IMG/VR virus record: IMGVR_UViG_3300014838_000025
Location: 1 to 55,597 of that record
Origin: a virus
Lineage: Duplodnaviria > Caudoviricetes
Reading direction: 5' to 3' (one strand)
DNA: 55,597 nucleotides
This document shows positions 8,128 through 19,600 of this stretch, one piece after another. The stretch's first letter is position 1; each line of letters begins with the position of its first letter. Under the pieces are notes generated by a model. The model was given only the letters and a program-made list of their open reading frames with translations, had not been told where the DNA came from and did no database searches. The position numbers and the translations under genes are program-made.

Positions 8128-9058
8128 AAAAAAATGCTCCGCTGGCCGGACTTCCGACTATCGGACTTCCCCCGCCGCCGCTCTGCGCTACCTGCCCACC
8201 ACTCGCCGTGACCACCACGACCGCAACAATCTGGAAACCGTCAAGATTTGCGTTTAACCGATTTTGAGGCGTGTCTGACAAGTACGGGCCAAGCAGAGAA
8301 ACGTAGTTCTGACGCTTCTTTACTCCGTAGTACCAAACCCCGTTGACCTGCACATACCCGCCAGCCCCGCTGACCGTTCCTAGAGGCGCTTGATACTCCA
8401 GAACCGCCCCTCCAGAAGACGATGACGTAAGCTGATACGGCCCGTTGAACCCGGCTGGATTTACTCCGAAGATGGTCCCTATATTCCCTGCAACCAATCC
8501 CGAGGCCGCGCAGTTCACGGTCACAAGATTGTTGACTGCCGCGATTGTAACGATTGCGTACTGAGCCGGGAAACTAAGGATGTCGATCCTGCCACTCAAC
8601 TGAACCGTGCTTCCGTCTGCAAACGTGAGGATGCTTGCCGGAGTCGACACGGTTACAGATGAACCACCGTTTGTCAGGATTGGGATGATCTGGTTTGCGT
8701 TCGGAACCGTGGAAGGAACGTCATTCAAAAAACTGCTCGACTGTTCCCGCTGGCCGTTGTGATTCAGTATCCGGTAGCCAGCCATTGCGTTCGCGCTCCC
8801 CGGCTTCAACTGCTCTTTCAAAACCGGAGCCGAGTAATTCTTCGCGGCCTCGCCCGAAGATAGAGCGTCTGTCACTTCTACCGGAGCGCCGACATTCGTA
8901 ATCCGGTTTCCCCCGAGGTCAATATGGTTGGCAACTTTTATTGGCCCTGAGTACCCGAGAAGAGAATTTACCCGATCAATCAGGGACGAATAGTGCTGGT
9001 TGAATACCGGATCAAGCCCGGAGAAGTCTAGCTTGGCGATCTGGTTCGGAACTGACAT
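8126..9058 (-). CDS. Putative virion structural protein (310 aa)
   Basis: Beta-rich G/S/V/T composition, located among tail genes. Confidence 0.55.
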   Translation of the reverse strand: MSVPNQIAKLDFSGLDPVFNQHYSSLIDRVNSLLGYSGPIKVANHIDLGGNRITNVGAPVEVTDALSSGEAAKNYSAPVLKEQLKPGSANAMAGYRILNHNGQREQSSSFLNDVPSTVPNANQIIPILTNGGSSVTVSTPASILTFADGSTVQLSGRIDILSFPAQYAIVTIAAVNNLVTVNCAASGLVAGNIGTIFGVNPAGFNGPYQLTSSSSGGAVLEYQAPLGTVSGAGGYVQVNGVWYYGVKKRQNYVSLLGPYLSDTPQNRLNANLDGFQIVAVVVVTASGGQVAQSGGGGSPIVGSPASGAFF

Positions 9059-9061
9059 GGG

Positions 9062-9250
9062 CTAATTGTACATCATGTTGGCATAATCCATGAAATCCAA
9101 AATTTGGACTGCTTTCAACTGGTCAAAAAACGAATGATAGCAGCGGAAACAAGCCGAATGATCTTTGTCCCGGCGTGGATGGTGATTCTTCCTACTCTGA
9201 AAAACTGGACGATGCTGCCCGCATTCCGAACAAAGCCATGCACGACACAT
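9062..9250 (-). CDS. Small Cys-rich (Zn-ribbon-like) hypothetical protein
   Basis: CSEC...CFRC pairs; abuts the next gene. Confidence 0.4.
   Translation of the reverse strand: MCRAWLCSECGQHRPVFQSRKNHHPRRDKDHSACFRCYHSFFDQLKAVQILDFMDYANMMYN
9094..9110. repeat. 17-bp palindrome (copy 2)
   Basis: aatccaaaatttggact. Confidence 0.8.
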
Positions 9251-9291
9251 AAGAGCCTCGCATCATAGCTAACATCGTAGCACTAAAAGAG

Positions 9292-9365
9292 TGGAGCGGG
9301 AGACGAGATTTGCACTCGCGCCAAGAGGATGGAAGCCTCTTATGCTGCTTTTACACTACTCCCGC
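9292..9365 (-). tRNA. tRNA-Gly(UCC)
   Basis: Cloverleaf; AGAGG-CUUCCAU-CCUCU; U73 and encoded CCA. Confidence 0.9.
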
Positions 9366-9371
9366 AAACTT

Positions 9372-9447
9372 TGGTCGCTCAGGTTGGCCTCGAACCAACT
9401 ACCTCGCCCTTATCGGGAGCGGGCTCTTCCTGTTGAGCTACTGAGCG
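9372..9447 (-). tRNA. tRNA-Ile(GAU), C33
   Basis: CGCUC-CCGAUAA-GGGCG; CCA. Confidence 0.9.
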
Positions 9448-9506
9448 TCTTGTGATGTGCGTCCTTATCCTATGGCAGTTCGCACATAACAAATCTCCAT
9501 ATGTTG

Positions 9507-9582
9507 TGGTGCGGAAGGAGGGACTCGAACCCCCGAGTGTCTGGGTGTAGACCAGATGCCTTAGCCGCTTGGCGACTTCCGC
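9507..9582 (-). tRNA. tRNA-Val(UAC), C33
   Basis: UCUGG-UCUACAC-CCAGA; A73; CCA. Confidence 0.8.
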
Positions 9583-9583
9583 A

Positions 9584-9661
9584 TGGAGCAGCCGACTGGA
9601 CTCGAACCAGCCTCAATCCATCTACTCTTACCGGATTCGGAATCCGGGGAGATACGGCTGC
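9584..9661 (-). tRNA. Atypical tRNA-Arg(CCG)-like RNA lacking a D-arm, with a long extra region
   Basis: Acceptor GCAGCCG/CGGCUGC, T-arm GCUGG-UUCGAGU-CCAGU, arm CCGGA-UUCCGAA-UCCGG; only 7 nt between acceptor and anticodon arm; CCA. Confidence 0.7.
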
Positions 9662-9668
9662 AAAACTT

Positions 9669-9745
9669 TGGAGCGACCTGTCGGACTCAAACCGACATAC
9701 TCTTCGTTAGGACCGAAGTTCTCTATTCAATTGAGATAAGGCCGC
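9669..9745 (-). tRNA. tRNA-Arg(CCU)
   Basis: CUUCG-GUCCUAA-CGAAG; CCA. Confidence 0.88.
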
Positions 9746-9750
9746 AAAAC

Positions 9751-9825
9751 TGGAGAGCCTACTGGGAATTCAACCCAGATTCATTGCTTAGAAGGCAAGC
9801 GCCCTATGCGTTGGACGATAGGCTC
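9751..9825 (-). tRNA. tRNA-Arg(UCU)
   Basis: UUGC-CUUCUAA-GCAA; CCA. Confidence 0.88.
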
Positions 9826-9826
9826 T

Positions 9827-9901
9827 TGGTGGGTCGCCGGGGAATCCAACCCCGTCCCGGCTCCTTAAAAGGGAGTGATGCAAGCATTACACCTGCGACC
9901 C
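9827..9901 (-). tRNA. tRNA-Lys(UUU)
   Basis: CUCC-CUUUUAA-GGAG; CCA. Confidence 0.88.
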
Positions 9902-9906
9902 CAAAA

Positions 9907-9982
9907 TGGTGAGAGCGGTGGGCAACGATCCCACAGCCTTCCGGGTAAGGGCCGGGTGCTCCGCCGATTGAGCTACGCTCTC
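9907..9982 (-). tRNA. tRNA-Lys(CUU), C33
   Basis: CCGG-CCCUUAC-CCGG; CCA. Confidence 0.85.
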
Positions 9983-9983
9983 A

Positions 9984-10060
9984 TGGTTGCTCTGACTGGA
10001 TTTGAACCAGTGATCTGACGATTATGAGCCGTCTGCTTTAAGCCTCTAAGCTACAGAGCA
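9984..10060 (-). tRNA. tRNA(CAU): elongator Met or Ile2
   Basis: GACGG-CUCAUAA-UCGUC; paired 1:72; CCA. Confidence 0.88.
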
Positions 10061-10070
10061 ATAAACTTTA

Positions 10071-10144
10071 TGGCAGGGACACTCGGACTTGAACCGAGAA
10101 AAACGGTTTTGGAGACCGCTGGTTTGCATTGAGCCTATGTCCCT
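10071..10144 (-). tRNA. tRNA-Trp(CCA)
   Basis: GCGGU-CUCCAAA-ACCGU; G73; CCA. Confidence 0.9.
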
Positions 10145-10160
10145 ACATTTCTCAAAGACC

Positions 10161-10189
10161 AAACAAAACTCCCGGCCTGAGCCGAGAGT
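10161..10189 (-). terminator. Attenuator terminator preceding tRNA block 3
   Basis: ACUCUCGGC-UCAG-GCCGGGAGU followed by UUUGUUU; 5' arm can instead pair with GAGGGUCUGAGUG (10209-10221). Confidence 0.75.
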
Positions 10190-10219
10190 CTGGGTGAAAC
10201 CAAAACTACACTCAGACCC

Positions 10220-10294
10220 TCAAGACACGACTCCCCGCCCCATCCACTTAATCCCGATGGTTATGGTTCTGACGTGTTTGACGGTCTGAGTCAT
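10220..10294 (-). CDS. Leader peptide 3 (24 aa, MTQTVKHVRTITIGIKWMGRGVVS)
   Basis: Short ORF with AGGA SD, ending at the antiterminator; codons match block-3 tRNAs. Confidence 0.75.
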   Translation of the reverse strand: MTQTVKHVRTITIGIKWMGRGVVS

Positions 10295-10333
10295 TGCCTG
10301 TTCCTGCTGTTGAGCACCCTTCGTAGTAAAGAC

Positions 10334-10362
10334 AGCCTACATCACTTCTCGGAATCCTGCAA
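10334..10362 (-). promoter_or_regulatory. sigma70-like promoter for tRNA block 3
   Basis: TTGCAG-17 bp-TAGGCT. Confidence 0.55.
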
Positions 10363-11691
10363 GCGTTCATATTCGACAATGTAATCAACGCACGCTTCGC
10401 TCCAGCCGTCAAGGTGTACCCATGCCTTGTAGCCGATGCCGTTCTGGTAGCTGGCTACGTTGATGAAGTACCCCTTCTTGTCCTTTCCGGGGCCACTGAT
10501 CGACGTGTGCGACTGCTCATCGGTAATGACAATGCAACGGTCGTATCCTTCCTTCGTTGCCACTGCCAAGGCCGCTGCGGTGTCCGTGCCGCCTCTGTGC
10601 TTCGAGGACGTGATTGCATCCCTCAAAGCAAACCCGCGTCGAGGCGGAATCAAGCCTGCCGTTGAGCCGAATACAACGATCTGTACTTCCTCGCAGACCT
10701 CGCGCAAAAGCATTGCCAGAGCACACGCCGCATCCACTCTCCGCAACTCCGACTTGCCGGAAATCTTATCCGACATCGAACCTGAGTTGTCTACTACCAG
10801 AACCGTCTTTCCAGCCAACTTCTCATGGCCTTCCAGACACTTGAACATCGCCTGCTCAAGTTCCGGTTCCAGCGTTGGAGCATACCGCGCAGCCGTGATG
10901 AACCGAAAAGGCAATACCCGATCAGTCTTCATGGCTCTCAGACCCTTACGTATAGCTTCCACGTCCACTCCGGCCTGCTGCATATTGCGAAGGTTCCGCA
11001 GCAATGCCAGAGCACCCAACTTCTCTTCCGCCAGCAACCGCGTGAACGTCTCTTTCTTGTCGGCCCCGCCGCTCAACTGCACTTCCCATGTATCCGGCGA
11101 TTCCAACGTCTTGTCGGCCAGTTTCTTCCACACTGCGGCCTGCTCTTGATCCTTCGGCTTTGCATGGACAAGGAACAACACATCCCGCAACTTCACTGCC
11201 GCCGAGTCAGCGTTCCACTTTGCCAGAGCGTATGCGTCGAACTTCTGGAACGCAGCCGCGAGTCCCTTCTTCATCTGCGCCGTGAGAGACTGCTTCTTCT
11301 CTTTCCAGTACAGCGAGATCAACTCACCCATTTCGTCCGGCCTCTGAACGACTTCGAAGATCGCACCTGAAACCACAGCACGAGTCTGCTTTGTTGCCGC
11401 CCGAATCAGAGCGACTAACAGCACCAAAGGAACATGGCGAAGTTTGAACTTCGTTCTTGCTTCGACTGCAATGTTCGCCACGGTTTCCGCGCCGTCTTTT
11501 TGCTTCAGAATCTCTGCGGTCGTACCCTGAATCCGCTTGGCAATGGATTCTCCATCCTCGTAGAACTCGTCTTCCCACAAGAGGCAAGACATGACGCTCC
11601 GACGAAGCTGCTCAACCGGGTTTGCAAAGACGGCCACTGCCCCTTCATGCGTGTAAAGCAAAACTTTCTTTTCTTTTGTATTGGTTTTCAC
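10342..11691 (-). CDS. rsr: Ro60/Rsr-like TROVE + vWA RNA-binding protein (449 aa)
   Basis: TROVE motifs (FYEDG, LRDVLFLVHAKP, TWEVQLS, ALLRNLRN, VLPFRF) and vWA MIDAS DNSGSM...GGTD...ITDEQ; GTG start 11691 after AAGGAGG. Confidence 0.93.
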   Translation of the reverse strand: MKTNTKEKKVLLYTHEGAVAVFANPVEQLRRSVMSCLLWEDEFYEDGESIAKRIQGTTAEILKQKDGAETVANIAVEARTKFKLRHVPLVLLVALIRAATKQTRAVVSGAIFEVVQRPDEMGELISLYWKEKKQSLTAQMKKGLAAAFQKFDAYALAKWNADSAAVKLRDVLFLVHAKPKDQEQAAVWKKLADKTLESPDTWEVQLSGGADKKETFTRLLAEEKLGALALLRNLRNMQQAGVDVEAIRKGLRAMKTDRVLPFRFITAARYAPTLEPELEQAMFKCLEGHEKLAGKTVLVVDNSGSMSDKISGKSELRRVDAACALAMLLREVCEEVQIVVFGSTAGLIPPRRGFALRDAITSSKHRGGTDTAAALAVATKEGYDRCIVITDEQSHTSISGPGKDKKGYFINVASYQNGIGYKAWVHLDGWSEACVDYIVEYERLQDSEK

Positions 11692-11710
11692 ACTACCCTC
11701 CTTACAACAG

Positions 11711-11734
11711 AAAAGCCCCGCGTCAGCGAGGCTC
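11711..11734 (-). terminator. Terminator-like hairpin between the Y-RNA array and rsr
   Basis: GAGCCUCGC-UGAC-GCGGGGCUU then UUCUGUU. Confidence 0.6.
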
Positions 11735-11741
11735 TCATTTA

Positions 11742-11871
11742 TTCGGGGGAACAAACGGCACAGGAACGTAAGCGTTTTACCGTTAAACTACGTCATCCGA
11801 AGATGCCGGAGAGATTCGAACTCTCAACACTCGCTCCAAAGGCGAAGTACCTGTTACCTACGCCACCCGAA
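11742..11871 (-). ncRNA. Y RNA, YrlA-like, with permuted tRNA domain
   Basis: Terminal stem UUCGGG/CCCGAA, GUGGCG...UACUUC...UGUUCC scaffold; T-arm GAGAG-UUCGAAU-CUCUC, loop-closed acceptor stem, D-arm; adjacent to rsr. Confidence 0.85.
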
Positions 11872-11878
11872 CATCTAA

Positions 11879-11962
11879 GAGCCGAGAACATGTGCAGCCG
11901 GAGGTTTATCTGGAGCCAGTGTTTTGGCGGCTCTGAAGTATCCGACTACGGCACTACGGCTC
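11879..11962 (-). ncRNA. Y-RNA-like RNA (non-tRNA apical domain)
   Basis: GAGCCG/CGGCUC stem, GUAGUG...UACUUC...UGUUCU scaffold. Confidence 0.75.
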
Positions 11963-11971
11963 ACAACTAAA

Positions 11972-12077
11972 GGCCGAGAACATTTGTAACGATTTTGCCC
12001 TACCAACTAGGGCGTCTCTTGATTGCTCAGGAGACTGGAATCGAACCAGTGATGAAATCGTTACTACCACTACGGCT
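11972..12077 (-). ncRNA. Y RNA, YrlA-like, with T-arm/acceptor/D-arm domain
   Basis: AGCCG/CGGCC stem, GUAGUG...UGUUCU; ACUGG-UUCGAUU-CCAGU and GCCC-UAGUUGGUA-GGGC. Confidence 0.82.
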
Positions 12078-12088
12078 CAAACTTTAGT

Positions 12089-12171
12089 CTCCGGGGAACT
12101 CTCGACTTCGGGTATCCCTTTCGGGATTCGGTTTAAGCAATCGAAGTACCCGCCGTCTTTCACCACCGGAG
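12089..12171 (-). ncRNA. Y-RNA-like RNA
   Basis: CUCCGG/CCGGAG stem, GUGGUG...UACUUC...AGUUCC; UCCC-GAAA-GGGA hairpin. Confidence 0.75.
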
Positions 12172-12178
12172 CAATCTA

Positions 12179-12249
12179 TGTCGAGAGAACAAGCGCCACA
12201 GTGTTTTTTCTATTGGAGAGAGAAGTAACTGTGACTTCACTACTCGACA
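12179..12249 (-). ncRNA. Y-RNA-like RNA (minimal)
   Basis: UGUCGAG/CUCGACA stem, GUAGUG...UACUUC...UGUUCU. Confidence 0.75.
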
Positions 12250-12254
12250 ACCTC

Positions 12255-12283
12255 ATTACAGCATGTTGGCAAATTCCTGTCAA
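12255..12283 (-). promoter_or_regulatory. sigma70-like promoter of the Y-RNA/rsr unit
   Basis: TTGACA-17 bp-TGTAAT with TGn extension, 5 nt before the first Y RNA. Confidence 0.75.
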
Positions 12284-12302
12284 GCATCCTGCAAAATAAT
12301 TG

Positions 12303-12377
12303 TGGTCACCCTGGAAGAAATCGAATCCTCGTCTCGACGTTCGTAGCGTCGTGTTCTATCCGTTGAACTACAGGGTG
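12303..12377 (-). tRNA. tRNA-Arg(ACG)
   Basis: CGACG-CUACGAA-CGUCG; CCA. Confidence 0.92.
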
Positions 12378-12382
12378 AAAGA

Positions 12383-12410
12383 TGGTCGGGGTGGTGAGAA
12401 TCGAACTCAC
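12383..12410 (-). pseudogene. 3' part (T-arm, acceptor strand, CCA) of interrupted tRNA-Pro(UGG)
   Basis: GUGAG-UUCGAUU-CUCAC-CACCCCG-ACCA; CACCCCG pairs with CGGGGUG at 12932-12938. Confidence 0.75.
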
Positions 12411-12416
12411 TCGACG

Positions 12417-12764
12417 TTAGAACAGATCATGTTCTATTCTATGGCAATTGGCACATAGAATCTCACACTTCCCAATCTCCTCCAGTATCCTCTCTCTAGT
12501 CCATCCATCGCGTAAAGCGTTGGCAATAGCAAGAACCTTGGACTCCTTATCTTTATGATGGAAGTCAAGAGCGGCTGGATGGTTGAATCCACATCTCGCG
12601 CACTTCATTTCTGATTTCAACTCTCGAAGCCAAATCCGTTTAGATACCCTACGCCGAGCAAGCCTAATAACAGATTCCTTGTTGTATTGAGACTTGTTTT
12701 TCTCGTACCAAGTTCTCCATGCGGCGTTCTTTTGATCTTGCCTTTCTCGCTCTGTCCTTCTCAT
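12417..12764 (-). CDS. HNH endonuclease (115 aa)
   Basis: CARC...LDFHH...CEILCANCHRIEH; TATAAT 7 nt before ATG. Confidence 0.85.
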   Translation of the reverse strand: MRRTERERQDQKNAAWRTWYEKNKSQYNKESVIRLARRRVSKRIWLRELKSEMKCARCGFNHPAALDFHHKDKESKVLAIANALRDGWTRERILEEIGKCEILCANCHRIEHDLF

Positions 12765-12811
12765 GAAACCGATTATACGTCTTGGGATCACTGAATAGTA
12801 TCCTAAAATAT

Positions 12812-12886
12812 TGGTCGGGGCACCGGGAGTCCAACCCGATCCACATGCTCCCAAGGCACGGATGCTGTGCGTCACACTCTACCCCG
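12812..12886 (-). tRNA. tRNA-Pro(UGG), intact diverged copy
   Basis: CGUGC-CUUGGGA-GCAUG; C1:G72, A73; CCA. Confidence 0.85.
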
Positions 12887-12896
12887 ATATTTAAGT

Positions 12897-12938
12897 CATG
12901 ATCCCAAATCATGCGGCCAGCCTTTAGCCCACACCCCG
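12897..12938 (-). pseudogene. 5' part (acceptor strand, D-arm, anticodon arm) of interrupted tRNA-Pro(UGG)
   Basis: CGGGGUG...CAUGA-UUUGGGA-UCAUG with no T-arm following. Confidence 0.75.
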
Positions 12939-12939
12939 A

Positions 12940-13014
12940 TGGTGGTCTGTGGAGCACTCGAAGCTCCCTCTCCGCGTCTTCAGCGCGGCGCTACGCCATC
13001 TCAGCTAACAGACC
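12940..13014 (-). tRNA. tRNA-Phe(GAA)
   Basis: CCGCG-CUGAAGA-CGCGG; CCA. Confidence 0.9.
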
Positions 13015-13020
13015 AAACTT

Positions 13021-13095
13021 TGGTGGACGTGGCCGGGTACGATCCGGCGACCCTAGTTTGCAAGACTAGAATGTTCCCATCTACACTACACGCCC
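13021..13095 (-). tRNA. tRNA-Ala(UGC)
   Basis: CUAGU-CUUGCAA-ACUAG; G3:U70; CCA. Confidence 0.92.
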
Positions 13096-13115
13096 ATTAA
13101 CTTGTCAAAGAACTT

Positions 13116-13190
13116 TGGGGTAGGTAACGGGAATCAAACCCGTGTGTCGAGGGCCACGACCTCGCGTCCTGTCACTGAACGATACCCACC
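13116..13190 (-). tRNA. tRNA-His(GUG), C33
   Basis: CGAGG-UCGUGGC-CCUCG; G-1:C73; CCA. Confidence 0.9.
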
Positions 13191-13198
13191 ATAAAATC

Positions 13199-13264
13199 AT
13201 TAGGCTAGGGTCGGCCTTTTAACACCCTATTTCAAATCCAACATTGGGCCTTGGATCACCTAAT
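13199..13264 (-). ncRNA. Unidentified three-way-junction RNA
   Basis: AUUAGG/CCUAAU enclosing AUCCAA/UUGGAU and UAGGGU/ACCCUA hairpins. Confidence 0.45.
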
Positions 13265-13265
13265 C

Positions 13266-13340
13266 TGGAGCACCCGGACGGATTCAAACCGTCTTCCCCT
13301 CGCTTACAAGGCGAGACATCATCAGCAATGCTTCAGGTGC
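13266..13340 (-). tRNA. tRNA-Thr(UGU)
   Basis: CUCGC-CUUGUAA-GCGAG; CCA. Confidence 0.88.
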
Positions 13341-13881
13341 CTACAAACGTAAACCTCTTGTCACCTTCGGAATCGACGTACAAAAATCGACTCCACTCTT
13401 GAACGCCCATTCCGATACTCCGCAGCATGAACCTGCTCGTGTGTACGCTGCTTGGAAGTGGCCGACGAATCAAAGGCATTCCTGCTTCCTCTGGCGTCTG
13501 GTCGTCCTTCCTCTGATTACAGTCTTTGCAAGCCGCCGTCAGATTCTCCCAAGTGCTCCTCCCGCCTTGCGCCTTCGGGATGATGTGATCCAGCGTCAGA
13601 TGCTCTCCTGAAAACTTGTGACCACAGTAATTGCAGTGATACCCGTCTCTCACGTAAATGTTCTTCCGAGTAACAATCTGCATCCGAACCGGGACGTGAC
13701 GATAAACCCGCAAGCGAATCACGCTTGGCAAGTACACGCCCGGATAAATCATCCTGTCCGTTGCTACCTCTACTACGGCCTTGCCCTTCGTGAGCAACGT
13801 GAGAGCTTTACGGACAGTAACTATCCTTATGGCTTCGTAGCTGGCGTTAAGCAACAGCGTCGGAGTCCGCATTAAGTTCAT
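13333..13881 (-). CDS. HNH endonuclease, McrA-like (182 aa)
   Basis: LLLNASYE...RDGYHCNYCG...LTLDHIIPKAQGGRSTWENLTAACKDCN; SD GAAAGGA. Confidence 0.9.
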   Translation of the reverse strand: MNLMRTPTLLLNASYEAIRIVTVRKALTLLTKGKAVVEVATDRMIYPGVYLPSVIRLRVYRHVPVRMQIVTRKNIYVRDGYHCNYCGHKFSGEHLTLDHIIPKAQGGRSTWENLTAACKDCNQRKDDQTPEEAGMPLIRRPLPSSVHTSRFMLRSIGMGVQEWSRFLYVDSEGDKRFTFVGT

Positions 13882-13896
13882 CACGTCAATCCTTTC

Positions 13897-13972
13897 TGGA
13901 GCTACCGGGGTTACTCGAAAACCCAACCTGTCGCTTACGAGACGACCGCTCTACCACTTGAGCTACGGCAGC
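13897..13972 (-). tRNA. tRNA-Thr(CGU)
   Basis: GUCGU-CUCGUAA-GCGAC; CCA. Confidence 0.92.
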
Positions 13973-13979
13973 ACATCTT

Positions 13980-14054
13980 TGGAGCGGGTTAAGGGAATCG
14001 AACCCTCGTATCGGCCTTGGCAAAGCCGCACTCTACCAACTGAGTTAAACCCGC
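13980..14054 (-). tRNA. tRNA-Gly(GCC)
   Basis: CGGCU-UUGCCAA-GGCCG; U73; CCA. Confidence 0.92.
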
Positions 14055-14060
14055 AAAACT

Positions 14061-14136
14061 TGGCAGGGACGCTCAGAGTCGAACTGAGATAAAACCCGAT
14101 CCAAAGTCGGGTGCCTGACCGCTCGGCCACGTCCCT
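14061..14136 (-). tRNA. tRNA-Gln(UUG)
   Basis: CCCGA-CUUUGGA-UCGGG; CCA. Confidence 0.88.
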
Positions 14137-14143
14137 ACAATTA

Positions 14144-14218
14144 TGGCTCCCCGCGAGAGATTTGAACTCCCATAATGACCTTCAGAGGGTCACGTCCTGC
14201 CAATTGAACGAACGGGGA
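14144..14218 (-). tRNA. tRNA-Gln(CUG)
   Basis: UGACC-CUCUGAA-GGUCA; U1:A72; CCA. Confidence 0.9.
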
Positions 14219-14225
14219 ACATAAA

Positions 14226-14312
14226 TGGCTCAGGCGGCAGGACTCTAACCTGCATTCCCTTGCGGGCACTTCGGTTAACAGCCGAGGCCGATAACATTCC
14301 GGACACACCTGA
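14226..14312 (-). tRNA. tRNA-Asn(GUU) with long variable arm
   Basis: UCGG-CUGUUAA-CCGA; V-arm CCC-GCAA-GGG; U1:A72, G73; CCA. Confidence 0.8.
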
Positions 14313-14324
14313 ATAATCATTTGT

Positions 14325-14367
14325 AAAAGATCAAAGCCTCCAAGCCCTTGTTCCGGCTTGGAGGCTT
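14325..14367 (-). terminator. Attenuator terminator preceding tRNA block 2
   Basis: AAGCCUCCAAGCC/GGCUUGGAGGCUU 13-bp stem then UGAUCUUUU; competing strand GGCUUGGACUCAGU at 14403-14416. Confidence 0.8.
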
Positions 14368-14400
14368 CTCAGTTTTTCCGCTCATCTGCGGGAAAAAATC

Positions 14401-14481
14401 TTACTGAGTCCAAGCCAACACACAATTACCTTGCGGCTGCGCCGTTGGGGTAAATCCGCGATGTGTGGCTCGTGTTCTCAT
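14401..14481 (-). CDS. Leader peptide 2 (26 aa, MRTRATHRGFTPTAQPQGNCVLAWTQ), leaderless
   Basis: ATG 6 nt after the -10 box; codons match all block-2 tRNAs; last codons form the antiterminator strand. Confidence 0.8.
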   Translation of the reverse strand: MRTRATHRGFTPTAQPQGNCVLAWTQ

Positions 14482-14487
14482 GTAAGC

Positions 14488-14516
14488 AACTTACCTGAAT
14501 TCTCTTTACCTGTCAA
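14488..14516 (-). promoter_or_regulatory. sigma70-like promoter for tRNA block 2
   Basis: TTGACA-17 bp-TAAGTT. Confidence 0.75.
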
Positions 14517-14784
14517 ACACTTTCCCAATATTTATTATTCCTGCTCTAAGTCGAGCATACCCATCTGGGTGAATAAGACCACATCCAAGATTACCAAGCA
14601 GGTACATATCTCCGGTAGCGTCCACTTCGTGCCAGTTATGTTTTTCTTTCCGCCACTTCTTCTGAATCCGAACTCGCTTGGATCGTGGAAACCTAAACTG
14701 TTCATTGCGGGTCTTAGGCATAAACGGATCGGCCATGACCTTAATGCCACTAAAGGTGCCGGACAACATATTCGGAAAGTCCAT
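14506..14784 (-). CDS. Hypothetical protein (92 aa)
   Basis: ATG 14784 after GAGAGG; basic motif RFPRSKRVRIQKKWRK. Confidence 0.55.
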   Translation of the reverse strand: MDFPNMLSGTFSGIKVMADPFMPKTRNEQFRFPRSKRVRIQKKWRKEKHNWHEVDATGDMYLLGNLGCGLIHPDGYARLRAGIINIGKVFDR

Positions 14785-14801
14785 TTTCCCTCTCGTAACC
14801 T

Positions 14802-14879
14802 TGGCGTTCCTGATCGGATTTGAACCGATGTTCCCGCGCTGAGAACGCAGTTGCCTAAGCCGGACTAGCAGACAGGAAC
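14802..14879 (-). tRNA. tRNA-Glu(CUC)
   Basis: CUGCG-UUCUCAG-CGCGG; CCA. Confidence 0.88.
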
Positions 14880-14883
14880 GCAA

Positions 14884-14961
14884 TGGTAGGGTAGATGAGA
14901 ATTGAACTCATATTGTCCTGAGTGAAAGTCAGGGTTCCTATTCCATTTAGAAGACTACCCC
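14884..14961 (-). tRNA. tRNA-Glu(UUC)
   Basis: CCUGA-CUUUCAC-UCAGG; CCA. Confidence 0.9.
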
Positions 14962-14967
14962 AAAACT

Positions 14968-15077
14968 TTTTGCAGTGAGCAGGTTTTGTGTCCCTGCCTT
15001 AGAGCGTAAGTAGGTGTTTCACCATCCCCCGCGTAGCTTGCTTTCGCATTCTCAGCCGTAAGACCGTCACTGCAAAA
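14968..15077 (-). ncRNA. Unidentified ~110-nt multi-hairpin RNA within the tRNA array
   Basis: 11-bp closing stem UUUUGCAGUGA/UCACUGCAAAA; hairpins UGC-GAAA-GCA, GGUG-AAA-CACC, GCAGG/CCUGC. Confidence 0.55.
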
Positions 15078-15079
15078 CT

Positions 15080-15155
15080 TGGCGAGGATGAGGAGATTCA
15101 AACTCCCGACTTCCAGCGTGACAAGCTGGCGCTTTTTCAACTAAGCTACATCCCC
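15080..15155 (-). tRNA. tRNA-Asp(GUC)
   Basis: CCAGC-UUGUCAC-GCUGG; G73; CCA. Confidence 0.92.
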
Positions 15156-15160
15156 AAAAT

Positions 15161-15237
15161 TGGTTGCTAGGGTGGAAGTCTAATCCACTGATTTTCGACT
15201 TATGAGGCCGACGAGCCAACGTTGCTCCATCCCAGCT
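15161..15237 (-). tRNA. tRNA-Met(CAU), initiator-like
   Basis: UCGGC-CUCAUAA-GUCGA; A1:A72 mismatch and GAGC/GCUC D-stem; the three G:C anticodon-stem pairs are incomplete. Confidence 0.78.
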
Positions 15238-15265
15238 ACAAAGCATATTACCGATACTTCTAAAA

Positions 15266-15356
15266 TGGTGCAAGTGGGAGAATTCGAATCTCCAGCGTTC
15301 CCGTAAGGAATCTAGTTTTACAGACTAGCGCAGCCAACCGTATCTGCCTCACTTGC
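15266..15356 (-). tRNA. tRNA-Tyr(GUA)
   Basis: CUAGU-CUGUAAA-ACUAG; long V-arm; CCA. Confidence 0.9.
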
Positions 15357-15797
15357 GTGTCGCCTTCTACTCCGTGCTTCACTGCGGCATAGTCGGCATT
15401 CCGTTTGAACTCCACGTCTCTTTGTCCGATCCTTCGTGAACTCAGAAACTAATGCAAAATGCTCCCCTTCACAACACCATGCCATGCCCGGAGGATCAAT
15501 TATTCGCAAATGAGCATTCACATCCATCTTCCGAAGGTCTTCCTTCGTTTTCTCTAAATGACATAATGAACATAACACTTGGGTCTTGGAAAGTTCTTCG
15601 TCTCTACGAACCTTCGACCATGACCATATAGCATGAGTTTCTTTTGTCAGTGGATCAATATGGTCGAGTTCTAAATTTTTTCTTGATCCACATCGAACAC
15701 ATTGCTTTCCTCGAAAATAAGATTCCCTCCGCTCGGCAATCCACTTTCTCTGGTAAGCCCTCATGTACTCCCGTCTTGACTGATAAGTTGAAGACAT
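15318..15797 (-). CDS. HNH endonuclease (159 aa); 3' end overlaps tRNA-Tyr
   Basis: CVRCGSRKNLELDHIDP...QVLCSLCHLEKT plus a C-terminal Cys cluster; TGnTATACT 6 nt before ATG. Confidence 0.88.
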   Translation of the reverse strand: MSSTYQSRREYMRAYQRKWIAERRESYFRGKQCVRCGSRKNLELDHIDPLTKETHAIWSWSKVRRDEELSKTQVLCSLCHLEKTKEDLRKMDVNAHLRIIDPPGMAWCCEGEHFALVSEFTKDRTKRRGVQTECRLCRSEARSRRRHASEADTVGCASL

Positions 15798-15821
15798 GGC
15801 GGAAGTATATCACATGAACAC

Positions 15822-15909
15822 TGGCGGAGACGGAGTGAGTCCAACACTCAAGTCCTTTCGGCACGTCCGGGTTCAAACCGGGTGGGCTTTGCACATGCCC
15901 AACGTCTCC
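15822..15909 (-). tRNA. tRNA-Ser(UGA)
   Basis: CCGG-UUUGAAC-CCGG; V-arm; G73; CCA. Confidence 0.88.
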
Positions 15910-15913
15910 AAAC

Positions 15914-16003
15914 TGGCGGAAGAGGAGAGGAACGATCTCTCAGTACCTTTTGGTACGTCCGATTTCGAATCGGGTGGGCTTGCCAGCCTTGCCCAACTCT
16001 TCC
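15914..16003 (-). tRNA. tRNA-Ser(CGA)
   Basis: CCGA-UUCGAAA-UCGG; V-arm; CCA. Confidence 0.88.
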
Positions 16004-16004
16004 G

Positions 16005-16093
16005 TGGCGGAAGTGGACGGGTACGATCCGTCATGTCCCTTTCGGGTACGCCTGCTTTCCAGACAGGTGAGCCACCAATTGCTCAACACTTCC
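16005..16093 (-). tRNA. tRNA-Ser(GGA)
   Basis: CCUGU-CUGGAAA-GCAGG; V-arm; CCA. Confidence 0.9.
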
Positions 16094-16098
16094 ATAAA

Positions 16099-16188
16099 TG
16101 GCGGAGACGGCTGGGTACGATCCAGCAATACCATTTAAGGTACTCTCGCTTAGCGGGCGAGTGCAATTTCCATTTCTGCCACGTCTCC
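16099..16188 (-). tRNA. tRNA-Ser(GCU), C33
   Basis: CUCGC-CCGCUAA-GCGAG; V-arm; CCA. Confidence 0.88.
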
Positions 16189-16193
16189 AAACT

Positions 16194-16272
16194 TGGTGCC
16201 GATGCCCGGACTCGAACCGGGAAGCCGCTCGTTTTGAGTGAGCGAGGTATACCAAGTTCCCTTCACATCGGC
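16194..16272 (-). tRNA. tRNA-Leu(CAA), short variable loop
   Basis: GCUCA-CUCAAAA-CGAGC; A73; CCA. Confidence 0.85.
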
Positions 16273-16292
16273 ATAATCATTTTTCAAAGAAC

Positions 16293-16368
16293 TGGTAGGG
16301 GCGGAAGGACTCGAACCCTCAAAGACTGGGCCTAGGCCAGCCGTGTTTGCCACTTACACCACGCCCCC
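16293..16368 (-). tRNA. tRNA-Leu(UAG), C33, short variable loop
   Basis: GCUGG-CCUAGGC-CCAGU; CCA. Confidence 0.85.
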
Positions 16369-16373
16369 AAACT

Positions 16374-16448
16374 TGGAGCAGCGGGCGAGAATCGAACTCG
16401 CCAATAACAGTTTTGCAGACTGTCCGCTAACCGATTGCGTTTCCGTGC
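16374..16448 (-). tRNA. tRNA-Cys(GCA), bulged acceptor stem
   Basis: ACAGU-CUGCAAA-ACUGU; U73; 5' strand GCACGG versus 3' strand CCGCUGC. Confidence 0.82.
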
Positions 16449-16451
16449 TCA

Positions 16452-16528
16452 TGGTGCGGGTGAAGGGCATCGAACCCCTAGAACCGGGATTTTAAGTCCC
16501 AGATGTCTACCAGTTGCATCACACCCGC
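16452..16528 (-). tRNA. tRNA-Leu(UAA), short variable loop
   Basis: UGGGA-CUUAAAA-UCCCG; A73; CCA. Confidence 0.88.
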
Positions 16529-16530
16529 AC

Positions 16531-16556
16531 AATAAAAATGCCTCCACTCGGGAGGC
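16531..16556 (-). terminator. Attenuator terminator preceding tRNA block 1
   Basis: GCCUCC-CGAGU-GGAGGC then AUUUUUAUU; competing strand GGGAGGCGUUCGUC at 16587-16600. Confidence 0.8.
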
Positions 16557-16567
16557 TCCGTCAGGAC

Positions 16568-16584
16568 AGTCCAAATTTTGGACT
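16568..16584. repeat. 17-bp palindrome (copy 3, inside attenuator 1)
   Basis: agtccaaattttggact. Confidence 0.85.
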
Positions 16585-16649
16585 CAGACGAACGCCTCCC
16601 TGCCCGATGACAGGCTATACAAATCGGAACTGAGGCATAAGGTCTTCAT
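16584..16649 (-). CDS. Leader peptide 1 (21 aa, MKTLCLSSDLYSLSSGREAFV; in-frame GTG at 16652 is an alternative start)
   Basis: Starts at or near the predicted +1; codons match block-1 tRNAs; last codons form the antiterminator strand. Confidence 0.8.
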   Translation of the reverse strand: MKTLCLSSDLYSLSSGREAFV

Positions 16650-16659
16650 CACGAAACCA

Positions 16660-16688
16660 ACTATCTCACGGCTTAGGCCGAGTGTCAA
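16660..16688 (-). promoter_or_regulatory. sigma70-like promoter for tRNA block 1
   Basis: TTGACA-17 bp-GATAGT with TGn extension. Confidence 0.7.
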
Positions 16689-19600
16689 CTATCCATTCGG
16701 CATGAAAGCCATTTTCGCATATCCCTTGCCGACCACCTGCGGTTTGGTTTCAATACAACTTTCGTCACCCCAAATCTGGAAGTCCGTGGGCGAGGTTGCA
16801 ATGAAGCGAATCATCTTGAACGATACCGCTGGCAAGCGAACTCTCTGCTGGCTGCGAACCCCGGCGCTGTTCGGCAACGTGAAGGTGAAGAACGCTGTGG
16901 ATGACCCATCATAGTAAACATTTACCGTTATCACGCCGGTACTCGTAAACTCCCAGAAGCTATCCTTCGCAATACTGTTAGAGTCCTGTGAAAGCCGCAG
17001 CCAAAAACTGTCCATCACCTTCCGCGTTTTTGCCAGAGGCAGGGCTTTCAAACCAATCTGGTACACATACACGGCTGCGGACACGTTCCCAGTTATCAAA
17101 ACTGAAACTTTGTAATACTCAAAGCCATTTCCAGCATTCAAAGAGAAGTTAACCTTCTCGCGGATTACGGTATTTACGTTGCCAATCAACTGCGTTACTT
17201 GCCCATCCTCGAACATGAGAGAGACTGACACGTTCTGCCCATTCGTGTTTATATCGAGCGTCAGTTCTTGGAAACTTTTAGTCGATGCCGGATTCCCGAA
17301 ATCTGTGTACAAGGTTTGCAGGTTCATCGTGATCGGAACTTGTGTAAGAGAGCCTGATGTATTCCCCTCATCGTAGAACTGATCCTGCCTGTCGATGTGA
17401 ACCAGACCGTTCGAGTCGCCATAAAGCAGACTGTTTGTGTCAACTTCGAGAAATAATGATTGTGCATCAACGTCATCATTGCGCCAGCGTTTGTAATGCG
17501 TGTGCAAGCAGAGACGATGCCGCGCTTCGTCTGTTCCGATGTAGCTCACGTAGACCAGAGTGTTCCAGTACGCGATCCGGGTTTGCGAGAGTTTCGTCTG
17601 ATCGGACTCGACAATCGGACTTGAGCCTACCCCTTGGAAGATGAACTCCAAATCCTGCGTCAAGTACATTGACGCTCCGCCTGCGAAGAAACGTACACCG
17701 TCAATCGCTTGGTAGAACACTCCCTCTTCCGTGACAACCCATCCTAACGGAGCGATGCAGCCGTGCTTAGATGCGGTCGGATAGATTGTCGGACTTGCAT
17801 TTGCGTTGCTCCCCGGCGCTACTGAGAACCATCCTCCCTTCAAGGTTGAGACATAAAGATTACCCTTGATCGCAGCAATTACCGTAATAGGATCGTCAGC
17901 CGTGGTCACAGCTACATACGCCGCTGAACTCACGGCTTGAGGATAGTTTGACGCACTCCAGTACAAACTGTTCGGATTATTCGGATCACCCGCAAACCAG
18001 AACTGCCCGTAGGCTTGCGCCATGATCGTCACTGGTTGACCGTAATTTGCCGTGGCCGAAACCGTTTCCCCTACGGCATGGGTGTTCTGTACAAAGGCCG
18101 TGAAGTAGTTCGAGCCAAGCGAGAGCACAATCACTGTTTCAAAATTGTTGGCAATGGACCCGATCACCCCAATCGAGACTTGCTGCCGCAGAGAGATGCT
18201 TGCCATGCTTGTCGGATAGACGTTCACAACCTGATTCGTCGTCGCTATCCCCGTACTCAAATACGTGTTGACAGGGTTCTGCAACGTGCTCGTCACCGGA
18301 ACATCGTTGGTAAAAGAGATGATGTCGCTCTGCTGGATGTCAACGTCCGTTGACGTGTCCAGATACGTCTGCGGGCTTCCGGTAATCAGAACCTCGTCCA
18401 GCTTGCGGTAGTTGTCGCCTAGCGTTCCCCCTCGGCGGTAGATTCTCAGGCTCGTGGTCTGAGGATCAACCGTTGGAAATGTCATCGTCAGTTGAACTGG
18501 TTGCCGCCTTGGATACACCCAATTCGTATCGAGTGAAGGATTCACATTCGACATCACCATGCAGGGGTTTGACTCGGTTCCATCCACGTTGTTGTAGAAC
18601 GTGAACAGATAATCGTAGGCCACTCCCGCAAACGTGTCCGGCCCTGAGCCTCCAAATAAAATCAGCGAAGCTATATCGACCGTGACTGACGTGTTGTTGT
18701 TCATCACAATCGTTATCTGGTATCCGTTTACAGCACTCCAGTTGAACACAGGATCGTTAAAATCCGCACGGCCTGAGCCAGCAAAATCCGACAACTGCAA
18801 AAGCAGTGGAGTCCACGTATTCAACCCTGTATTCAATTCGGCAATACTGCTTGGACTGCTTACGGTTGTTGAACTTCCGTAGATTCCTAAAGACTCGTAA
18901 AGCAACGCATCTGTCGCGGCTGTCGTCGCCTCTGTGGTGTTGCTGCTTGCCGTGTCGAGAAGATTTTGCAGCGGCCCCTGAGCAATCACCTTGTAAAAAT
19001 AGTCCGAGTTGAAGGTTCCATCCCCACAATCAAACTTGAGAGTGATCGACTGAATCTGCGATGGATCGAATGCAGGCGTAGTCCCTGACGGAGCACCCAG
19101 CCACAAGCCGATGTAGTCCTCCATATTCAGAGTCGTCGGCCATCCGGCTATCGGAAACCCTACAAACGAATTTGTAATCGTTGCCGTGGTCGATGGAGCA
19201 ATGACCGCCTGATTTCCACGAAGTTGAACATTTTGTCCGATAATATGTGTTTTCGTGAAGTTGGCAATAAAGCCTGTCTCTGTCACCCCTAGAACCAAAA
19301 CATACTCAGCATTTGTCGAAACGAATCCGACCGCTAGATATTGGAACAATCCAATCGCTTGCGGATTTGCAACTGACACAGCCTGAATACCCGGAACCGT
19401 AACAGCCGAAGTGAGCGTTGTGCCAACTAGAATGTTGTTTGGATTGAACGTCGTCACGCCTGAAGTCGTGTAGGTAGAACTTACGTAGTAATCCAGAACA
19501 ATCAGATCGGGATTAAGAGCCTCAGCCGCCACAGGGTATTGCGGTTGGAAGATTCCCATCTGCTGCGGTGCTGCTAGAGTTCCGTTGTCCTTTTTCATGC

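Follow-up and report, generated by a model that had tools for sequence, protein, structure and literature searches.

A putative leader-peptide attenuator preceding a block of eleven tRNA genes in a phage

The trpL, hisL, leuL, and pheL leaders each sense one amino acid by means of tandem codons, and their default without translation is termination. The multivalent leaders of enterobacteria respond to more than one (thr to Thr and Ile; ilvGMEDA to Leu, Val, and Ile), and the pheST attenuator, whose leader is pheM, controls phenylalanyl-tRNA synthetase. The element studied here, termed leader 2, is a 192-nt segment (minus strand, 14516..14325) of a 55,597-nt stretch of viral DNA (Duplodnaviria; Caudoviricetes), namely positions 1 to 55,597 of the IMG/VR virus record IMGVR_UViG_3300014838_000025, estimated to be 57% complete. 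This whole stretch is called the window below. Leader 2 holds promoter-like boxes, a short open reading frame (ORF), a terminator, and a T tract, and it stands before a block of 11 tRNA genes (block 2). Why phages carry tRNA genes, and by what means these are controlled, is debated; the explanations include codon-usage matching, compensation for the decay of host tRNAs, and escape from anticodon nucleases.

The structural features by which leader-peptide attenuators are recognized were found in leader 2: a short ORF with start signals, regulatory codons, a terminator before the first gene, and a predicted, mutually exclusive antiterminator. Their form differs in one respect, as single codons for many species take the place of the runs used by classic leaders. 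The layout is that of leader-peptide attenuators and is closest to the multivalent thr and ilv leaders. As in thr and ilvGMEDA, codons for several amino acids would set the position of the ribosome, the end of the leader would compete for the 5′ arm of the terminator, and the predicted pairings (1:2, 2:3, and 3:4) follow a four-region layout. Unlike those leaders, leader 2 would control tRNA genes rather than biosynthetic enzymes, in a phage, and probably from a leaderless mRNA; it also samples nine amino acids and 11 tRNAs, with 1-3 codons each and one adjacent same-amino-acid pair. The selection of an antiterminator over a terminator by a stall at regulatory codons would be shared with the trp, his, leu, and phe leaders, but most of the nascent leader folds described here favor the antiterminator when no ribosome is present, unlike trpL, hisL, leuL, and pheL. 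With pheST/pheM, leader 2 would have in common the leader-peptide attenuation of a component of the translation apparatus; there, a synthetase protein gene is controlled and one amino acid is sensed, whereas here tRNAs would be the targets and the product would be the sensed species.

As in T-box riboswitches, the choice between terminator and antiterminator would report the state of specific tRNAs. A T-box, however, works without translation, as its specifier codon and T-box sequence make direct contact with uncharged tRNA, whereas leader 2 has a predicted translated ORF. The T-box model gave no Rfam match at E ≤ 1 in positions 8500-17500, and the Rfam leader families (His_leader, Leu_leader, Thr_leader, Trp_leader, and others) were absent among the 37 matches obtained in that segment at that threshold. 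The only match under the leader-2 element was that of a frameshift-site model, at chance level (E 0.3), to the terminator hairpin. In full-text literature searches, conducted mainly at the level of abstracts, leader-peptide control of tRNA genes was not found described.

Codon content and alternative folds of leader 2

Under strict wobble rules, 11/11 of the block-2 tRNAs have a cognate codon in the leader-2 ORF. An earlier note on this DNA, made from the sequence alone, had claimed this, and it had also stated that codons 3-19 encode only amino acids of the block (T, R, A, H, G, F, P, Q, and N), that the block comprises 11 listed tRNAs, and that the ATG lies 6 nt after the -10 box; all of this was borne out by the ORF (14481..14401), by the tRNA calls (14312-12303), and by direct reading of the sequence. 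Among the 25 codons after the start, 21 specify members of the block's set of nine amino acids, and 15 match a block-2 tRNA at the codon level; the GCC, GGA, ACC, and AGA codons are unread by block-2 tRNAs. As a background, 53,544 other stop-free 25-codon windows in the six frames of the window were scored. Twenty-two reached 11/11, and none of them also reached a run of 18. In the long ORFs of the window, a fraction of 0.483 of all codons specifies amino acids of the block-2 set, from which P(≥21 of 25) = 2.5e-4. The codon-to-tRNA match of leader 2 is far beyond chance.

The window has two further leaders of this design, each before its own tRNA block (Table 1). Leader 1 covers 12/13 tRNAs of its block, and leader 3 covers 9/10. 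Mismatched leader-block combinations cover 2-4 tRNAs: leaders 1 and 3 cover 3/11 block-2 tRNAs each, and leader 2 covers 3/13 block-1 and 4/10 block-3 tRNAs. Chance is not a reasonable explanation for three near-exclusive codon sets that each stand immediately in front of the block they match.

In the minimum-energy fold of the nascent RNA (extending to the 3′ arm of the terminator), TTGGCTTGGACTCAGT (14418..14403) pairs with ACTGAG...TCCAAGCCGG (14373..14353) around an inner hairpin. This pairing of regions 2 and 3 includes that of GGCTTGGACTCAGT (14416..14403) with ACTGAG...TCCAAGCC (14373..14355). The region 2-3 duplex has a predicted energy of -20.0 kcal/mol, compared to -10.1 ± 3.3 kcal/mol in random windows, and random windows equalled it in 2/1000 cases in one test and in 1/500 in another. 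The fold of the full transcript (-66.4 kcal/mol) consists of a 1:2 helix (codons 3-7 with codons 20-24) and the terminator. When a ribosome was masked mid-ORF, the terminator 5′ arm was in a structure of -27.2 kcal/mol; when it was masked at the stop codon, -3.9 kcal/mol remained, compared to -27.0 kcal/mol for the terminator, and the terminator would therefore win. The pairing of the terminal ORF stretch with ACUGAG and the terminator 5′ arm, which the earlier note had proposed, is thus that of the minimum-energy nascent fold; the terminator, described there as having 13 bp, was found with 14 pairs (14368..14333) and a T-rich tail. This hairpin is the strongest terminator-like site of the region. 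The first block-2 tRNA (14312) begins ca. 12 nt past the tail (14325), a distance that leaves no room for a promoter between them. The non-cognate codons at the C-terminal end of the ORF (CVLAWTQ) are those that form region 2; this fits an attenuator, because a ribosome halted at these codons would hide region 2, and no signal could result.

In 5/5 leader-2 genomes, TTGACA is followed after 17-18 nt by a -10-like hexamer and then, 6-9 nt further on, by the start codon. A start codon soon after the -10 was also found in most copies of leaders 1 and 3; the longer untranslated regions of L014, L027, and leader 3 of the window instead carry a GAGG/AGGA site ahead of the ATG. The start signals across leaders are accordingly of two kinds, i.e. 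a -10 located 6-10 nt before the start codon or a Shine-Dalgarno-type GAGG/AGGA, and they are consistent with translation of the ORFs. It is plausible from this spacing that the leader-2 mRNA has little or no 5′ untranslated region, i.e. that it is leaderless. In RNA-library contigs from two studies, 14494-14800 (307 bp, from tRNA-Glu CUC to the leader-2 promoter) is replaced by 32 other letters, and this variant restores TTGACA plus 17 nt before the same TAAGTT on the gene strand. An ORF that lies in this segment (14506..14883) is without a family match.

Leaders in related phages

Relatives were collected by a search with the Ro60 protein (30 IMG/VR loci) and by a search with an 18-base core of leader 3 (ten more contigs), and the tRNA arrays of six records were retrieved for comparison. 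The three-block layout is common to L004, G005, G007, G008, G010/L005, and G001. Several records were omitted from the count of leader-block pairs: G009, whose three upstream stretches are letter for letter those of G007; L003, whose tRNAs are those of L002 except the sixth (offset ca. 35-43 nt); and L013, whose tRNA list is that of L007 at a constant offset. Also omitted were tRNA-like calls located past Arg ACG and overlapping with the Y-RNA-like region, as well as ARAGORN calls with an odd anticodon length. The resulting 21 pairs, from 11 records, have 213/231 tRNAs covered by their leaders.

In the leader-2 family, coverage is 11/11 in four genomes and 13/14 in G005. The five leader-2 peptides (window included; Table 1) have pairwise identities from 4/21 to 12/24, yet each has 9/9 of the block's amino-acid types, in shuffled order. 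Because composition is kept while order drifts, selection appears to act on codon content and not on peptide sequence. The same conservation of leader composition with changing order was found in at least eight related records, and blocks with other contents are preceded by leaders of other compositions (L014, L027, and L002; Table 1). When six compositionally distinct leader-block pairs were permuted, the true assignment was the best of 720 by all three measures.

A terminator was called by a strict rule in 18 of the 21 leaders. In 17/18 of these, the duplex between the ORF end and the terminator 5′ arm was matched by ≤40/500 random windows, and in 13/18 by ≤10/500. Terminator stems vary among the genomes, and the ORF ends vary along with them. 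Column-wise covariation in the alignment (A1) was dropped because the antiterminator helices shift register between genomes; the per-sequence duplex tests with random-window controls were used in its place.

Some candidates were rejected. A pattern built on the conserved core of leader 2 returned L004's own contig and three chance hits in G+C-rich coding DNA (L034-L036). ORFs of 34 and 42 codons precede the arrays of L007/L013 (24 tRNAs in one block) and L025 (41 tRNAs), respectively, but with so many tRNAs the match is not discriminating; the L007 hairpin is without a T run. No leader was found for the L021 array (11 tRNAs). The tRNA arrays of related phages also harbor an RNase P RNA (126.8 bits) and, beside the tRNAs, permuted tmRNA genes (L007 3696-3971; L005 624-1009; L025 5409-5700).

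A blastn search of 13800-15000 against cultured phages yielded tRNA-sized matches only (80-83% identity) and no close cultured relative; the Ro60 loci of the cultured phages CcrColossus and Papperlapapp are not beside tRNA arrays. In the Caulobacter phage CcrColossus (NC_019406.1, our L071), two unannotated short ORFs fit the pattern of a codon-matched leader and are regarded as candidates (Table 1). The first precedes a Pro/Thr/Lys/Leu/His/Ala/Ser block, and the second precedes an annotated terminator and a Phe/Val/Ile/Gln/Asn/Arg block. The count for the second omits a Tyr GUA tRNA (L071 10066-10151) because of a coordinate filter; that leader has a TAT codon. Neither a leader ORF nor a terminator was found for CcrColossus block 1 (Trp, Gly, Gly, Glu, Asp). 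Leaders and attenuation go unmentioned in the accessible part of the CcrColossus genome paper (PMC3556154). These candidates make a test in a cultured phage feasible.

Proposed mechanism and its alternatives

The best reading of leader 2 is a transcription attenuator of the ribosome-mediated, leader-peptide type, which senses slow decoding of the block's codons and thereby gates the 11 block-2 tRNA genes; we assign this a probability of about 0.72. It is favored because the same design recurs, as it predicts, at the other blocks and in the relatives, and the comparative evidence thus supports the attenuator interpretation of the earlier note. Its elements, their order and spacing, the codon match, the alternative pairings, the conservation, and the covariation in relatives were established by computation. 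From these, we infer where transcription starts, that the ORF is translated, and in which direction and how strongly the unit responds, as follows. Transcription would start a few bases before the ATG, giving a leader mRNA with little or no 5′ untranslated region, and a ribosome would translate the 26-codon ORF as RNA polymerase heads for the terminator. Codons 3-19 would sample at least one codon per downstream tRNA species. With prompt decoding, the ribosome would reach the last codons or the stop and cover region 2 (14418..14403), leaving region 3 to form the terminator and ending transcription near 14325. With a scarce aminoacyl-tRNA, a stall upstream would let the region 2:3 antiterminator form, and polymerase would read into the Asn...Arg genes. 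A shortage of any one tRNA of the set would thus raise the output of the whole set.

If this attenuator exists, the phage gauges its capacity for decoding separately for each tRNA species and makes a set of tRNAs when it is needed, which would also explain the grouping of the tRNA genes into blocks. Leader-peptide attenuation would then extend from amino-acid supply to the tRNAs themselves, with signal and product being the same molecule, and the leaders would be natural, compact sensors of tRNA depletion. A wider scheme, which we put forward tentatively and consider somewhat doubtful, is that the three attenuators act as OR-gate sensors, each detecting the loss of any of about ten tRNAs, so that the phage replaces only the failing set; this would be an on-demand counter-defense and a homeostat of decoding capacity with a leaderless test ORF. 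The tRNAs might be lost to host anticodon nucleases or to tRNA decay during infection, and the three leaders would partition the genetic code.

A number of observations weigh against an attenuator. The -10 box, TAAGTT, is weak (3/6 match to TATAAT), which is why the consensus promoter scan did not list the TTGACA/TAAGTT site. Ten of the 25 codons are not cognate at the codon level, and there are 1-3 codons per tRNA with one adjacent same-amino-acid pair only, compared to the runs in the his, phe, and leu leaders; as the regulatory codons are mostly single, the sensitivity to a mild shortage is uncertain. The Asn and Pro tRNAs, two of the 11 in block 2, are non-canonical. The terminator is part of every minimum-energy fold of the full-length RNA, and antitermination therefore rests on kinetic, co-transcriptional folding. 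In most leaders, the 5′ arm is sequestered in the nascent fold even when no ribosome is present, so the default without translation may be read-through, unlike trp, and the element may open if translation fails altogether. The RNA-library contigs (four runs) include none that spans 14223-14448, and such contigs cannot show transcript ends. Elsewhere in the window, leader 3 retains three ACC codons with no Thr GGU tRNA left in block 3. In the relatives, the block-1 leaders of G007 and G010 do not cover the Asp and Glu tRNAs; coding sequence intervenes ahead of block 2 in both L005 and G001 and ahead of block 3 in G001, and no leader was found there within 270 nt; leader 1 of G008 is without an antiterminator in the fixed window; and 3/21 leaders (G007_2, G005_1, and L004_2) have bulged stems or weak T tails and went uncalled by the rule.

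The sequestration of the 5′ arm bears on an alternative in which leader 2 senses translation capacity in general. The antiterminator would then form whenever the ORF was not begun or not completed, as with few free ribosomes or host shut-off, and the codons would just demand the phage tRNA set. The arm is sequestered without a ribosome in most leaders; in leader 2 of the window, the predicted sequestration is 9/14 bases without a ribosome, 9/14 with one mid-ORF, and 6/14 with one at the stop. Leaderless mRNAs need a special initiation route, which also counts in its favor. A general sensor, however, has no need for three mutually exclusive codon sets, for nine amino-acid types kept under sequence turnover, or for covariation with block content, and we regard it as unlikely. 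Much lower is the probability that a stall works in the opposite direction, exposing a Rho or RNase site and lowering tRNA output, or that the hairpins are signals for processing tRNA precursors. Such precursors do need 5′ processing, and the arrays of relatives carry RNase P RNA and tmRNA, but with its G+C-rich stem and T tail the hairpin is built like an intrinsic terminator, and the pairing is of the classic antiterminator type; to cut the supply of tRNAs under slow decoding would make no regulatory sense.

The remaining two alternatives, which we consider slightly less probable still, dispense with regulation by the ORF. One holds that the hairpin is a constitutive, partly leaky terminator or insulator between units and that the ORF is a chance frame. 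Intrinsic terminators are common between phage genes, the terminator scan found 13 sites against 9.0 ± 3.3 expected from shuffles, and the -10 is weak; yet the codon match, rare by chance, recurs at three blocks and in 21 pairs, the ORF is open in diverged homologues, and its end is complementary to the terminator arm in 17/18 leaders. The statistics already disfavor this explanation. The other takes the locus as an independent micro-gene for a small peptide or small RNA that acts elsewhere, the tRNAs being made by unregulated read-through or from another promoter. Promoter, ORF, and terminator do compose a complete small unit, but the peptide is poorly conserved in sequence while its composition is kept, the ca. 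12 nt between tail and tRNA could not house a promoter, and the codon match would be unexplained.

Feature coordinates and neighboring genes

Table 1. Features of the three leaders and tRNA blocks of the window and leader peptides of related phages. Positions are those of the window unless another record is named.
Feature	Position	Strand	Description
Leader 2, -35 box	14511..14516	-	TTGACA; read from sequence; 17-18 nt before a -10 in 4/4 leader-2 homologues
Leader 2, -10 box	14488..14493	-	TAAGTT; 17 nt after the -35, 6 nt before the ATG; position and spacing conserved in homologues
Leader 2, ORF	14401..14481	-	26 codons plus TAA (14403..14401); MRTRATHRGFTPTAQPQGNCVLAWTQ; open in L004, G007/G009, G008, G005
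Leader 2, codons 3-19	14425..14475	-	Putative sensing stretch; all 11 tRNAs of block 2 are represented by one codon or more
Leader 2, region 1	14462..14474	-	Predicted partner of the first part of region 2 in the minimum-energy fold of the full transcript
Leader 2, region 2	14403..14418	-	Last ORF codons and first stop base; predicted 5′ strand of the antiterminator (folds, duplex tests)
Leader 2, small hairpin	14374..14396	-	Enclosed by the predicted antiterminator; from fold; in the alignment rows of the window, L004, G007, G008
Leader 2, region 3	14353..14373	-	ACTGAG and terminator 5′ arm; alternative partners are region 2 or the 3′ arm
Leader 2, intrinsic terminator hairpin	14333..14368	-	14 pairs, 8 G-C, loop of 8, -27.0 kcal/mol
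Leader 2, T-rich terminator tail	14325..14333	-	From terminator scan
tRNA block 2	12303..14312	-	Asn GUU, Gln CUG, Gln UUG, Gly GCC, Thr CGU, [HNH ORF], Thr UGU, His GUG, Ala UGC, Phe GAA, Pro UGG, [HNH ORF], Arg ACG
Putative attenuator 1	16540..16688	-	Promoter TTGACA-17-GATAGT (16688..16660); ORF MKTLCLSSDLYSLSSGREAFV (16649..16584); terminator (16556..16540)
tRNA block 1		-	Behind attenuator 1; 13 tRNAs: Leu x3, Cys, Ser x4, Tyr, CAU, Asp, Glu x2
Putative attenuator 3	10166..10362	-	TTGCAG-17-TAGGCT (10362..10334); AGGA-type ribosome site; ORF MTQTVKHVRTITIGIKWMGRGVVS (10294..10220); terminator (10191..10166)
tRNA block 3		-	Behind attenuator 3; 10 tRNAs: Trp, Met, Lys x2, Arg x3, Val, Ile, Gly
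L004 leader-2 peptide			MMTTRHFAATPTANQPQGRNCATGEGSQTDL
G007 leader-2 peptide			VRTRFHNAATQPTQPAGNSGGAD; GTG start
G008 leader-2 peptide			MKTRFQNANPTATATPQGHGAESGSQ
G005 leader-2 peptide			MRLNRANSNHPAQTVATPFQGGRM
L014 leader			MRMLTQGTPKPQTRTYQRYCGRCVQKMGVLS; rich in T, Q, G, P, R, Y, C; block Pro, Arg, Tyr, Gly, Gln, Thr, Cys, Gln, Arg
L027 leader			...AMFNNIVGA...; has W, N, F, I, M, V, A; block Trp, Asn, Phe, Ile, Met, Val, Ala
L002 leader			MTMKHLSSLSSSSSLSESGGV; has S, E, K; block Ser, Ser, Glu, Lys
CcrColossus candidate leader 1	61264-61383 (L071 2965-3084)		MTFSTHKPSTLKPATGAASLAHASLLTPATSKPSLSRSL; own block 13/13, 35/38 codons at amino-acid level; other blocks 1/5, 2/11
CcrColossus candidate leader 2	68148-68243 (L071 9849-9944)		MMTYRNNVRQIRVRQFNLAGRSHVGDGGSEG; own block 10/11; other blocks 4/5, 6/13

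ARAGORN with default settings called 29 tRNA genes in the window (9292-16528). Relaxed thresholds and Rfam added six (Asn GUU, Pro UGG, Lys UUU, a CAU tRNA, Cys GCA, and an odd Arg CCG-like gene), and the total of ca. 34 phage tRNA genes is shared out among the three leader-headed blocks. G-C skew is below 0 along the whole window, and all genes examined are on the minus strand. ORFs for HNH endonucleases split the array, and a Ro60/TROVE gene with Y-RNA-like hits lies between blocks 2 and 3.

The default settings recovered 9/11 of the block-2 tRNAs; Asn GUU (14312..14226) and Pro UGG (12886..12812) were called only by relaxed ARAGORN and had no Rfam hit, although both have orthologues at the matching position in relatives. 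The tRNA-Asn GUU gene (14226-14312, minus strand) scores under the thresholds that ARAGORN and Rfam apply by default; its D stem is weak, and an 11-nt insertion gives it a long extra arm; the Asn tRNAs of L004, G005, G007, and G008 are without the insertion. The orthologue of the L004 tRNA-Pro is split in the window into a 5′ part (12938..12895) and a 3′ part (12417..12383), both on the minus strand. The ca. 477 nt between the halves contain the divergent second tRNA-Pro UGG (12886..12812, T loop TTGGACT) and an HNH endonuclease ORF (12875..12417). This arrangement looks like a mobile HNH cassette that brought its own replacement tRNA, or like an intron; the 8500-17500 scan had no Rfam hit to a group I intron at E ≤ 1.

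Odd tRNA-like genes are located at 9587-9661 and 16376-16450 (minus strand). The Arg CCG-like gene has a 4-nt D region and a 16-nt variable region and scores 29.3 bits with the tRNA model. For the Cys GCA gene, the best model is that of tRNA-Sec, at 35.9 bits, which is under the cut-off of that model. Each of these two genes is matched by a codon (CGG and TGC, respectively) in the leader of its own block. In L004, L005, G001, G005, G007, and G008, a Thr GGU tRNA is found between Val and Ile, where the window has a 59-nt gap (9448-9506, minus strand); it seems that this tRNA was lost while leader 3 still samples its codon.

The gene for the Ro60/TROVE-vWA protein occupies 10342..11754 (minus strand). 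Two weak YrlA (Y-RNA-like) hits before it, at 11744-11852 and 11967-12079, have sub-gathering scores, and a promoter-like TTGACA-17-TGTAAT (ca. 12289..12261) directly follows tRNA-Arg ACG. Judged by this arrangement, 10342-12289 (minus strand) would be a phage Ro60/Y-RNA module inside the tRNA array.

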